Sequence record: OR845787.1
Strand: one strand, 5' to 3'
Origin: Escherichia phage ECO95 1-6-1
Length of the DNA: 1,621 nucleotides
Shown: positions 1 to 1,621 of the stretch, piece by piece
Numbering within the stretch: the stretch's first letter is position 1
How the letters are laid out: each line of letters starts with the position of its first letter
Notes under the pieces: model-generated
Seen by the model: only the letters and a program-made list of their open reading frames with translations
Databases searched by the model: none
Told to the model about the DNA's origin: nothing
Translations under genes and position numbers: made by a program

Positions 1-253
1 CCTTAAAGCCCAGGAGGTTAGCAAAGGCGAACTGCTGCCAAGGCTCCAGCTCGATAGGCTGGCCCCGCAGCGGGCCTTTGACGTGTGGACAGAGCCGGGA
101 GAACGCGATAAACCGCTCTACGGTCGCCGTATCGAACTCATAACGGGGATCATTCAGGTCTGAAAAGTACCTTTCCACGGCCTGTTTTACGCGCTTACAG
201 GCCGGAATTTCGCCCGTTTTTATCGCATTTGCGTACTCATTCCAGACGGTCAA
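1..253 (-). CDS. terL: Terminase large subunit (TerL), N-terminal 84 codons only; the gene continues past the left edge of the window
   Basis: Hand translation of the minus-strand frame from 253 down to 1 is open throughout: (M)TVWNEYANAIKTGEIPACKRVKQAVERYFSDLNDPRYEFDTATVERFIAFSRLCPHVKGPLRGQPIELEPWQQFAFANLLGFK. The pattern (ACK.V...ER...DL, F.FD...A.R...F, L.H.KG...G.P..L.PWQ.F) matches what I recall of the conserved N-terminal region of Terminase_1-type large subunits. It is missing from the ORF track because no stop falls inside the window. The proposed start is TTG at 253..251, preceded by AGGAGG (265..260) with a 6-nt spacer. The start codon is less certain than the gene identity. Confidence 0.85.
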   Translation of the reverse strand, partial: MTVWNEYANAIKTGEIPACKRVKQAVERYFSDLNDPRYEFDTATVERFIAFSRLCPHVKGPLRGQPIELEPWQQFAFANLLGFK

Positions 254-593
254 GCTCGTCCTCCTCTTCCGTTTCCACCGGGTTACGGCGACGACTTACC
301 GGATCAAAGCCCAGCAGCGACGACATTTTAATCATGATTTTTTCAGCATCGGCCTTTGCACTCAGTGCCGGATTTCGGCTCTCTCCACCCTGGCTGTTAA
401 CAATGCTAAACCCACGGCTGGCAAGGTCTTCCACTGCTTTGCGGTACATCGAATAGTTGACGCAAAAAAGCTCAAGGTTGTTCCAGTCGGCGGGTGTCAG
501 ATCGCCACGCTCGGCCAGTTGCTTCGCTTTCGCTTTCCACTGCTGCGCGGCTAACTCATCAAGGTAAGCTGGCGGTTTTGGTGGTCTTGCCAT
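237..593 (-). CDS. terS: Terminase small subunit, P27 family (118 aa)
   Basis: ORF-track frame 237..761(-), trimmed to the ATG at 593..591, gives MARPPKPPAYLDELAAQQWKAKAKQLAERGDLTPADWNNLELFCVNYSMYRKAVEDLASRGFSIVNSQGGESRNPALSAKADAEKIMIKMSSLLGFDPVSRRRNPVETEEEDELDRLE. The M-A-R-P-P-K-P N-terminus, the size and the acidic C-terminal tail are typical of P27-family small terminases. Stop is TGA at 239..237. The 56-codon extension up to 761 crosses the GC-rich hairpin and A/T-rich tract and has no protein-like character. There is only a weak GAGA/GGAA purine run upstream of the ATG. Confidence 0.9.
   Translation of the reverse strand: MARPPKPPAYLDELAAQQWKAKAKQLAERGDLTPADWNNLELFCVNYSMYRKAVEDLASRGFSIVNSQGGESRNPALSAKADAEKIMIKMSSLLGFDPVSRRRNPVETEEEDELDRLE
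260..265 (-). promoter_or_regulatory. Shine-Dalgarno sequence (AGGAGG) for terL, embedded in the glutamate-rich 3' end of terS
   Basis: Minus strand reads GGAAGAGGAGGACGAGCTTG. AGGAGG lies 6 nt upstream of the TTG at 253..251, which opens the TerL-homologous frame. The motif arises from the glutamate codons of the TerS C-terminal tail (TEEEDELDRLE). Confidence 0.6.
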
Positions 594-868
594 AAAAATT
601 TCTCGTTTCCATCGCGTTTTATTTTCAAAAAAATCACCGTGCGTAAAAATTTGAGGGGGCGGGCGGTGCCTGGCGCCTTGAGGTTTGTCCTGAAAACCTC
701 CCCCACCCCGTCCATGCGGCCTGTCAGCGATTGCGGAAGCATTCCCGCAACTCCCGGTCACGCTCGGTCATACGCTGCGCAGGCTGGCGCTCATTGCATC
801 TGCTTCGCCCCCGCATGAAGCCATCACGGCAGCGCATCAACGATCGGTACAGATTCACCACGTCTTTC
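594..868. other. 275-bp non-coding region between HNH and terS; candidate cos (cohesive-end packaging) region
   Basis: No convincing ORF in any frame; ORFs 551..742(-) and 731..1009(+) are out of context and low-complexity. Contains a G-rich tract (653-666), a 7-bp-stem hairpin (680-700), a C-rich tract (697-710), an A/T-rich tract (594-650) and short inverted and direct repeats (731-770). In HK97-like phages the cos site lies between the HNH gene and terS. The functional assignment is by position only. Confidence 0.4.
680..700. repeat. Perfect 7-bp inverted repeat (GAGGTTT / AAACCTC) around a 7-nt loop
   Basis: Read directly from the sequence: 680-686 gaggttt, loop 687-693 gtcctga, 694-700 aaacctc. 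Flanked by G-rich sequence on the left (ttgagggggcgggcgg, 651-666) and C-rich sequence on the right (cctcccccaccccg, 697-710). Not followed by a T/U run on either strand. Confidence 0.7.
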
Positions 869-1312
869 TCATTCATTGCTGGCCTCATAGATCCAGTCAT
901 TGCGATGGGCTGCACGCTTTTCCTGCTCTCGGTACAGCCCTGCCTTACGGTTCGCTTTGGTGATGGGGTCTTGCTGCGTGGTCTTCTGGTTATGATGCAT
1001 CTGGCATAACGGCTGGTGATTCCACTCAGGCCAGAACAGAACATCGTCACCGCCATCGATAGGGATGATGTGATCAACAATCTTTGCAGGAACGTAGAGG
1101 CCCAGCTTCTGGCACTCGACACACAGCGGCTGACGTTTCAGGTACTGAGCGCGGTACTTCTCCCATGATGCTGAGTAACCACGGGCGCGACGGTGGCCGC
1201 GTCTGGCATCTTCCGCCCGCCAGGCTTCCCGCTTGTGCTCATCGCACTTACCAGACTTCACCCGCTTATTACATCCCGGCTCAGTGCACCGGCGCATTGG
1301 TTGCCACGGCAT
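869..1312 (-). CDS. HNH endonuclease of the phage packaging-associated type (147 aa)
   Basis: ORF-track frame 869..1345(-), trimmed to ATG 1312..1310: MPWQPMRRCTEPGCNKRVKSGKCDEHKREAW...CVECQKLGLYVPAKIVDHIIPIDGGDDVLFWPEWNHQPLCQMHHNQKT... It has a Cys-rich N-terminus (C-x4-C...C-x2-H), a CxxC, and the D-H...N...H-H core of HNH nucleases. The ATG at 1312 shares its A with the TGA stop of the upstream connector gene (TGATG), with a G-rich tract (GGGGGTG) about 6 nt upstream. The alternative ATG at 1297 (MRRCTEP...) cannot be excluded. The GTG at 1345 lies deep inside the upstream gene and is unlikely. Confidence 0.9.
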   Translation of the reverse strand: MPWQPMRRCTEPGCNKRVKSGKCDEHKREAWRAEDARRGHRRARGYSASWEKYRAQYLKRQPLCVECQKLGLYVPAKIVDHIIPIDGGDDVLFWPEWNHQPLCQMHHNQKTTQQDPITKANRKAGLYREQEKRAAHRNDWIYEASNE

Positions 1313-1611
1313 CAGTACACCCCCACATCGCGATACACAGACCACAATGCAGAGATAGCAAGGGGGATCTCTTTCGCCTCCACATCACTAATCATCGTGC
1401 GGTATTCGTACAGTTGGGAAACGTACATAAGGCATCCGATCTTGATGGCAGGAGTGAATTCCAGACCAGCACCGAACCGCTTACCGATATGCTTCTGGCA
1501 GACTTCCAGCGACGCTTCGATGTATGCCTGAATCATTGCATCTTCATAGGAATCATCGTTATCGATGCGACAGTGAAGTTTTGCCTCATCAAGCCCAATT
1601 AGTTCACTCAC
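1312..1611 (-). CDS. gp6-like head-tail connector / adaptor protein (99 aa)
   Basis: Translation: MSELIGLDEAKLHCRIDNDDSYEDAMIQAYIEASLEVCQKHIGKRFGAGLEFTPAIKIGCLMYVSQLYEYRTMISDVEAKEIPLAISALWSVYRDVGVY. The N-terminal L-x-EAK-x-H-x-RID-x-DD...I...YI-x-A and the C-terminal P-AIK...L...YE-x-R...P-x-AI-x-AL...YR match the pattern I recall for the gp6-like head-tail connector family (HK97 gp6 / SPP1 gp15 type). The start is GTG at 1611..1609 (I checked the codons by hand), and the N-terminal motif begins right after it, supporting this start. Stop is TGA at 1314..1312. Confidence 0.75.
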   Translation of the reverse strand: MSELIGLDEAKLHCRIDNDDSYEDAMIQAYIEASLEVCQKHIGKRFGAGLEFTPAIKIGCLMYVSQLYEYRTMISDVEAKEIPLAISALWSVYRDVGVY

Positions 1612-1614
1612 AGC

Positions 1615-1621
1615 TTAAGCC
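1615..1621 (-). other. Extreme 3' end of an upstream minus-strand gene (in-frame TAA stop at 1617..1615), otherwise outside the window
   Basis: Minus strand reads GGCT-TAA-GCT-GTG. The TAA is in frame with the connector gene and sits one codon (GCT) before its GTG start, which suggests a tightly packed upstream gene. The gene itself cannot be seen. Confidence 0.3.

Follow-up and report, generated by a model that had tools for sequence, protein, structure and literature searches.

A connector-HNH-terS-terL segment filed under an Escherichia phage is very probably the packaging end of a capsid-forming satellite at fis in Salmonella enterica

Sequence record OR845787.1, filed under Escherichia phage ECO95 1-6-1, contains a 1,621-nt stretch of DNA (hereafter the window, meaning the whole stretch that was analysed) in which a gene for a gp6-like head-tail connector lies directly before genes for an HNH endonuclease and for the two terminase subunits, TerS and TerL. 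In HK97-like phages terL is followed by portal, protease, capsid, connector and tail genes, and the HNH gene comes after the lysis genes. In the element studied here, by contrast, capsid, protease, portal, adaptor and connector follow one another in that order ahead of HNH. This locus raises the question of whether it belongs to a tailed prophage with a rearranged map or to a compact satellite of the capsid-forming phage-inducible chromosomal island (cf-PICI) type that carries capsid and packaging genes, as the initial annotation had suggested. We conclude that the window is very probably the right-hand packaging end of a cf-PICI integrated at the 3' end of fis in the Salmonella enterica chromosome. 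The suggestion of a compact satellite is borne out by a unit of ~16.3 kb that is bounded by attachment (att) sites and carries no tail, baseplate or lysis genes. This answer draws on the gene content, the gene order and overlaps, the boundaries, the identity to the island EcCIGN02175, the absence of tail and lysis genes, and an excised form. The element belongs to a known and well-populated family, is near-identical here to a published, tested island, and is in that sense already known.

Every gene in the window of OR845787.1 lies on the minus strand, in the order head-closure 3' end, connector, HNH, a 50-codon open reading frame (ORF) that we call orf50, a 130-nt gap, terS and the 5' end of terL. 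The features are as follows, where vB_KppS-Ant is a related deposited phage record.

1608..1621, minus strand: 3' end of the head-closure or 'head-tail adaptor' gene (Phage_HCP PF05521, phrog_25 Hc1), stop codon TGA at 1610-1608
1312..1611, minus strand: head-tail connector gene (gp6-like, 99 aa, GTG start; PF05135, phrog_40), product 100% identical to EcCIGN02175 WP_001547824.1
869..1312, minus strand: terminase-associated HNH endonuclease gene (147 aa; phrog_144, PDB 5H0M), ATG at 1312-1310
724..876, minus strand: orf50, the 50-codon ORF (phrog_3173)
594..723, no strand: non-coding gap of 130 nt between orf50 and terS, probable cos region, conserved without codon periodicity
618..686, no strand: probable cos cleavage position, 69 nt, placed here as the equivalent of the stretch missing from vB_KppS-Ant
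237..593, minus strand: terS, P27 family, 118 aa (PF05119), product 100% identical to EcCIGN02175 TerS WP_000113647.1
1..253, minus strand: 5' end of terL, first 84 codons, TTG start at 253 (phrog_4914), continuing past the window edge

The connector product matches PF05135 Phage_connect_1 (E 2e-7) and phrog_40 'head-tail adaptor Ad1' (E 5e-31), with a weak match to HK97 gp6 (PDB 3JVO, E 0.022). Similarly, the HNH protein matches phrog_144 (E 2e-41) and the terminase-associated HNH of PDB 5H0M (E 3e-9), with a borderline score of 21.3 bits against the Pfam HNH model where the cut-off is 21.4, while TerS matches PF05119 (E 3e-25) and the N-terminal part of TerL matches phrog_4914 (E 7e-28). Among 10 relatives, third codon positions are the most variable in connector, HNH, terS and terL, which indicates that all four are coding. 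The genes are tightly packed. As the initial annotation had it, the connector abuts HNH in a TGATG overlap, with the connector stop TGA at 1314-1312 sharing one base with the HNH ATG at 1312-1310. The upstream gene, thought to end 3 nt before the connector, instead overlaps it by 4 nt in a GTGA arrangement, where the head-closure TGA at 1610-1608 runs into the connector GTG at 1611-1609; the TAA at 1617-1615, presumably the stop that the initial annotation relied on, is out of frame, and the end of the head-closure gene was taken from the gene call at 9370-9705 of the Salmonella locus described below and from the RefSeq annotation of relatives. Likewise, HNH is not directly followed by the non-coding gap, as orf50 (876..724) intervenes and the gap is confined to 594-723. 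HNH and orf50 overlap by 8 nt and terS and terL by 17 nt. A promoter and terminator scan of the window, gap included, found none, and an Rfam scan of the window returned only a chance-level snoRNA match far below threshold.

The genomic setting of the window was obtained through the exact HNH protein, which led to a locus (L003) on a 4.8-Mb contig (PCJD01000001.1) of assembly GCA_003547705.1. This chromosome segment is 100% identical to the window across all 1621 nt and is assigned to Salmonella enterica on several grounds. The exact HNH and orf50 proteins are named Salmonella enterica and occur on at least 1000 contigs. The chromosomal flanks of L003 are only ~83% identical to E. coli and ~81% identical to K. 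pneumoniae. From left to right the locus comprises AntA, an Arc-like gene, five small genes, a DUF927 primase/helicase and two unknown ORFs; then major capsid, S78 protease, portal, head closure (adaptor) and connector; and then HNH, orf50, terS, terL and DUF3892, followed by the chromosomal genes fis, dusB, prmA, panF and accCB. The capsid, protease and portal products match PF05065, PF04586 and PF04860, respectively (L003 6352-9373), the adaptor matches Phage_HCP and phrog_25 (L003 9370-9705), and the 709-aa primase (L003 2720-4849) matches DUF927 (E 5e-50) and the DNA primase family phrog_1139 (E 5e-182). The complete terL, at L003 11060-12721, encodes both TerL_ATPase and TerL_nuclease domains. 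The housekeeping genes fis, dusB and prmA begin only 620 nt past terL with DUF3892 alone in between, and attR is directly seen at the 3' end of fis. The portal, protease and capsid genes, which the initial annotation had placed beyond terL, are in fact immediately upstream of the connector, and what does lie past terL is DUF3892 and then attR and fis. A contig associated with Salmonella Kentucky, which also points to a Salmonella source, is 99.95% identical over the junction between the island and fis-dusB.

The left side of the island can be followed in close relatives. A Salmonella Kentucky-associated contig (L022) overlaps L003 by 372 identical nt and continues through an AlpA-like 106-aa ORF, located directly upstream of antA, and a 292-aa ORF to the 3' end of an integrase gene. 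The 97.3% identical island of E. coli KCJ3K291 (L005) is complete from a tyrosine integrase beside yhdJ to DUF3892 beside fis. The integrase (PF00589, PF13356, phrog_1) is the leftmost gene in the E. coli and Klebsiella copies, which are 97-99% identical, and AlpA of the E. coli copy matches PF05930 Phage_AlpA (E 2e-10) and phrog_2790. An AlpA-like regulator and a primase had been anticipated on the connector side, and both are there. The integrase, anticipated within 10 kb on the same side, is also present there in the E. coli and Klebsiella copies, at a distance of ~12.5 kb rather than within 10 kb. The attL and attR sites are an imperfect repeat of ~78 nt that comprises the fis terminator hairpin and the last 13 nt of fis, indicating that integration regenerates the 3' end of fis. 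The two copies lie at L005 5199-5276 and 21511-21588 and carry ...GCCGAGTAGCGCCTTTTTA...AGTTCATGCCGTA, and tandem repeats of the integrase arm type, CTGTATAAACATYTGTATAAACA, flank the att core on both arms (including L006 10211-10540 of a Klebsiella phage record discussed below). The att-bounded unit has a repeat period of 16,312 bp in KCJ3K291 and of 16,227 bp in the EcCIGN02175 host, where the published size of EcCIGN02175 is 16,238 bp (He et al. 2025, bioRxiv 10.1101/2025.02.11.637232). When all ORFs from int to fis were scanned against PHROG and Pfam, the families assigned were integrase, AlpA, Ant, primase, and head and packaging proteins only, with no tail, baseplate, holin or endolysin. 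The initial annotation had named tail, tail-fibre or lysis genes, or a size above 30 kb, as evidence for an ordinary prophage, and the unit of 16.3 kb shows none of these.

We also observed that several low-coverage contigs labelled 'UNVERIFIED_ORG' (OR851399.1, OR851456.1, OR850982.1, OR845527.1 and similar; L022, L023) carry the names Salmonella phage S.Kent 1-2-1 and Escherichia phage ECO95 1-6-1 and are 99.8-100% identical to the island. One of these spans the junction between the island and fis-dusB, indicating that this DNA is host chromosome or transduced DNA and not a phage genome.

Comparison with characterised islands identifies the closest relative. The top E. coli matches, at 97.5% identity, are strains GN06667, GN05476, CU37RT-2, OW1E2, TUM9754 and DETEC-P61. 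All six appear as EcCIGN02175 carriers in the strain list of He et al. 2025 (Table S1; bioRxiv 10.1101/2025.02.11.637232), and the EcCIGN02175 coordinates given in that table enclose the matches. In the same study EcCIGN02175 is assigned to E. coli GN02175 as well as to six further species. The protein comparison with characterised cf-PICIs that the initial annotation had called for gives 100% identity to EcCIGN02175 for both connector and TerS. Identities to three characterised island types are as follows, where the third was assigned to the EcCIEDL933 type by 99% capsid identity to PDB 9GYI.

EcCIGN02175: connector 98/98; adaptor 99%; HNH 144/146; TerS 100%; TerL N-terminus 82/83; capsid 95%; orf50 44/49
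KpCIDSM30104 (K. pneumoniae ATCC 13883, L014): connector 84%; adaptor 49%; HNH 88%; TerS 95%; TerL 93%; capsid 96%; orf50 82%
EcCIEDL933-type L018: connector 59%; adaptor 39%; HNH 74%; TerS 81%; TerL 82%; capsid 64%; orf50 43%

The connector and adaptor values reproduce published inter-island identities (83% and 50%; 61% and 40%), which establishes that the window connector is the published 'connector' and that the Phage_HCP gene is the published 'adaptor'. The Salmonella island shares with EcCIGN02175 the site at the 3' end of fis, the order of the packaging module, a 100% identical DUF3892, and DNA that is 94% identical over 8.6 kb, a stretch that starts before the capsid gene and takes in fis and dusB.

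These features agree with how cf-PICIs have been defined. Published criteria describe elements of 10-18 kb with an integrase and regulation and replication modules, a packaging set, and neither lysis genes nor a complete tail module, and the proteobacterial members have a conserved order of capsid, protease, portal and head connectors, then hnh, terS and terL. The SatelliteFinder model for cf-PICIs specifies 11 core components with tails and holins forbidden. All 11 core components are present in the island, which is chromosomal and att-bounded and lies within the 10-18 kb range. The complete same gene order was found in 10 of 13 loci from representative genomes of other species; in the remaining three, two Pluralibacter loci are cut at contig ends and one (L019) is without head genes. 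The best HNH identity in the scan of genome contigs, a set that lacks the island of the source species, was 94%. By contrast, the criteria for a complete HK97-like prophage describe something different, as the island has no tail, tail-fibre or lysis modules, is 16.3 kb long as opposed to >30 kb, and does not follow the order terS-terL-portal-protease-capsid-connector-tail. It is equally distinct from a classical PICI, which is defined by having no portal, connector, adaptor or terL and by using helper capsid proteins, as all four of these genes are present here.

Excised forms of close relatives are also on record. The last 15.9 kb of PQ569648.1 run from terS and terL through attP and int and on through capsid, HNH and orf50, with an island left half that is 99.4% identical to L003 and a break exactly at the orf50-terS gap. 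A second record, vB_KppS-Ant, was deposited as an 'induced prophage' of 16,548 bp in linear form; both of its ends match KpCIDSM30104 exactly, and 69 nt between them are missing. These 69 nt correspond to window positions 618-686, which is expected if the physical DNA ends lie there. We further observed that PQ569648.1 ('Klebsiella phage P12620-1'; L006, L007) is 106.5 kb long, that its island is opened at the cos gap and lacks ~138 nt there, and that its remaining ~90.6 kb hold two separate Baseplate_J genes and myovirus-like genes. This record looks like a concatenated assembly.

Several points weigh against an intact and mobile cf-PICI. The attL site and the integrase are outside L003, which ends 10 kb upstream, and the left end of the island was reconstructed from L022 plus the 97-99% identical E. 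coli and Klebsiella islands, and the mobility of this particular copy is inferred. PQ569648.1 places baseplate genes beside terS; we considered these genes as a refutation of a tail-less element and rejected them, as the junction falls exactly at the terS start, the record ends at the orf50 stop and attP is present. The placement of cos draws on conservation and on record termini rather than on mapped ends. Finally, some relatives are decayed. In E. coli S163-2 an IS1A lies directly after a truncated gene beside the integrase (L001 15387-16660). As a separate observation, this strain keeps int, the IS1 and the capsid-to-terL module and has lost alpA and the replication half, as in a decayed cf-PICI.

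A temperate HK97-like prophage of the ordinary kind, in which the structural genes have been reordered and the tail and lysis genes lie outside of the window, would account for the phage-like character of the proteins (a gp6-like connector, an HK97-family protease, a P27-family TerS and a terminase-associated HNH) and for the deposition of related elements in GenBank as 'phages'. However, fis, dusB and prmA begin 620 nt past terL, primase and regulators occupy the DNA upstream of the capsid gene, and the att-bounded unit measures 16.2-16.3 kb, such that the flanks and the size exclude a rearranged full prophage for practical purposes. No island ORF matches a tail or lysis family and the DNA is common to no full-size phage record, and we consider this explanation highly improbable. 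The existence of related 15-16.5-kb records labelled as phage genomes, among them vB_KppS-Ant and Pmp8, could instead be taken to mean a miniature autonomous phage that needs no helper, particularly as the annotations include a 'tail length tape measure protein' in one record and a 'tail terminator' in another. The 765-aa 'tape measure' of vB_KppS-Ant (L002 2036-4333, with an equivalent in L014) has no Pfam or PADLOC match, occupies a variable cargo slot after terL where the island studied here has DUF3892, and is absent from this island; the label is probably that of a misannotated accessory gene. There are no genes for a major tail protein, tail tube, baseplate, fibre, holin or endolysin, and published mutants demonstrate that transfer of EcCIEDL933 requires the tape-measure and major tail genes of the helper. 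Because tail and lysis genes are missing, an autonomous mini-phage is excluded as a serious contender, and its probability is close to nil.

That the window instead derives from an immobile remnant, a cryptic cf-PICI or prophage fragment with intact-looking head and packaging genes, is the least improbable of these alternatives and is still quite unlikely. Decayed copies do exist, as in E. coli S163-2 and in Klebsiella sp. WOUb02 (L019), which is without head genes and part of HNH, and for the source copy the integrase is known only through relatives and an overlapping contig. Against this, the ORFs of L003 are full length and match those of EcCIGN02175, a transfer-proficient island, identically or nearly so, at least 1000 contigs carry the exact HNH and orf50 proteins, codon positions 1 and 2 are under purifying selection, and the copy with the 99.4% identical left half is excised, with attP, in a record of a phage preparation.

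If the island is a functional cf-PICI, a mechanism can be proposed by analogy with tested members of the family. Specifically, a helper phage would trigger AlpA-dependent expression, the island would excise at the ~78-nt att repeat at fis and replicate with its own primase, and one long translationally coupled operon for morphogenesis and packaging would be expressed. Its own capsid protein, protease and portal would then form small HK97-fold heads, its own P27-family TerS would recognise cos in the orf50-terS gap, and TerL, helped by HNH, would cut at cos and fill the small heads with unit-length (~16 kb) DNA. The adaptor and connector would cap the portal and present a docking surface for the tails of a co-resident or external siphophage, with tail-less capsids being released and tails being the only virion parts that the island does not encode. 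The packaged linear DNA would have terS and terL on the left and would close on the right with connector, HNH and orf50, an arrangement that would explain why the connector abuts HNH in the integrated map. Induction, small capsids, tail piracy and the role of adaptor and connector in tail specificity have been established by experiments on EcCIEDL933, EcCIGN02175 and KpCIDSM30104, and the heads of EcCIEDL933 are T=4. For the present island, the excised or cos-opened copies in virion-derived records lend indirect support to such a cycle. Cooperation of HNH with TerL in the present element is a proposal. The adaptor and connector are 99% and 100% identical to those of EcCIGN02175, so the same tail range is predicted, with compatibility expected for HK022- and HK106-type tails. 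The adaptor/connector pair thereby predicts which phage tails a Salmonella island can borrow.

Relative to EcCIGN02175, the left half of the Salmonella island is unrelated in DNA: EcCIGN02175 carries a 'DNA primase family' gene, whereas the island here has AntA, Arc-like and Icd-like genes and a DUF927 primase/helicase. The cargo preceding the capsid gene differs as well, being a PDC-M18 candidate defence pair in EcCIGN02175 and two unknown ORFs here. In EcCIGN02175 (L008 9091-10648) the pair was detected by PADLOC as PDC-M18A (E 2e-71) and PDC-M18B (E 8e-23) upstream of the capsid gene; the same slot of the Salmonella island (L003 5195-6089) holds ORFs of phrog_7232 and phrog_5789 without a PADLOC match. 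PADLOC also gave no match for DUF3892, for the 111-aa, 170-aa and 313-aa ORFs, or for orf50. KpCIDSM30104 (DSM 30104 = ATCC 13883, of which vB_KppS-Ant is a near-twin) agrees with the Salmonella island in architecture, fis site, portal (96%) and a conserved cos gap, but differs in its replication module and in carrying one more gene (765 aa), located after terL and before fis. The prototype cf-PICI, EcCIEDL933 (Alqurainy et al. 2022/2023), agrees in gene order, also in the small ORF that separates HNH from terS (seen in L018), but has a different replication module. Its capsid (PDB 9GYI) aligns over the full length with that of the Salmonella island (E 1e-158, 64% identity), with gaps in the capsid 'connector loop' region.

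More distant systems share only part of this organisation. HK97-like cos phages with an HNH-dependent terminase (gp74, gp1, gp2, gp6; Kala et al. 2014, as cited in the cf-PICI literature) also have HNH right before cos, followed by terS and terL, and have an HK97-fold capsid, an S78 protease and a gp6-like connector, but they are ~40 kb in size with tail and lysis genes, whereas the island is 16 kb with neither. Classical Gram-negative PICIs such as EcCICFT073 share the int-alpA-primase left half, induction of AlpA by the helper and a chromosomal att site, but they redirect helper capsids and terminase (Rpp) and contain no capsid, portal, connector or terL, in keeping with the SatelliteFinder model for PICIs in which portal, adaptor and connector are forbidden.

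As a side observation, the island is a mosaic. The half with the head and packaging genes is 94% identical to EcCIGN02175, while the alpA-antA-DUF927 half (L003 1-6130) has no DNA similarity to EcCIGN02175 and instead matches islands of E. coli KCJ3K291 and of a Klebsiella sample (L005, L006) at 94-99% identity. On sequence grounds this pattern indicates module exchange between cf-PICIs across genera, and the occurrence of the head module at 94-100% in Salmonella, E. coli and Klebsiella with differing replication modules fits the published inter-genus spread. We also noted that among enterobacterial loci with this capsid type (L009-L020) the adaptor is only 45-59% identical, while in the same loci the flanking portal and capsid are 91-99% identical and the connector is intermediate at 81-86%. 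This local hypervariability of adaptor and connector fits their published role in tail specificity. The present locus adds little new biology, given that cf-PICIs have been in the literature since 2022-2023, that SatelliteFinder picks them up routinely and that ~13% of Enterobacteriaceae genomes contain them. The practical value of the locus lies in annotation, where connector-HNH-(small ORF)-cos-terS-terL, a signature of 1.6 kb, suffices to flag a cf-PICI rather than a prophage.

The orf50-terS gap is as conserved as coding DNA and yet is without codon periodicity. This conservation, together with the record ends that fall there, makes it probable that cos lies in this gap and is cut within 618-686. 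A search for repeats in the gap gave only short chance-level repeats, with no clear cos hairpin definable. Adjacent to the gap, orf50 is translationally coupled to HNH and has homologues in L005 and L008-L019. Its C-terminus, RDRE(L/V)xECFRNR, is invariant throughout the enterobacterial relatives, whereas the N-terminal part varies and falls into two allele types (~42% versus 70-90% identity) where the neighbouring HNH and terS are at least 84% identical; orf50 is absent from Pasteurella Pmp8. A role for orf50 as a dedicated accessory factor for cf-PICI packaging is a tentative and rather doubtful proposal. The two divergent N-terminal alleles could reflect tuning of packaging or of the interplay with helpers. 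The invariant C-terminal coding end runs straight into the conserved cos block, such that the 3' sequence of orf50 could at the same time belong to the region recognised as cos. In the packaging module of EcCIEDL933 a single gene, '1792', has no name, and a mutant of it transfers poorly. It may be that orf50 corresponds to '1792', and orf50 would then not be new.

The core of the gap (window 619-667) extends beyond the Enterobacteriaceae. It is detectable by blastn in Pasteurella Pmp8 and Pmp7 at the same position between HNH and terS, with 77-86% identity between enterobacterial cf-PICIs and Pasteurella multocida Pmp7/Pmp8 (Pmp8, L024 10744-10837). The same blastn comparison picked up no surrounding coding DNA between the enterobacterial islands and Pmp7/Pmp8, and found no full-size phage that shares the core. 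Pmp7 is 10.7 kb in size. Pmp8 measures 15.3 kb, shows the full gene order of a cf-PICI and is probably a satellite that entered the database as a phage. A cos core common to Enterobacteriaceae and Pasteurellaceae could permit cross-packaging between otherwise unrelated cf-PICIs.

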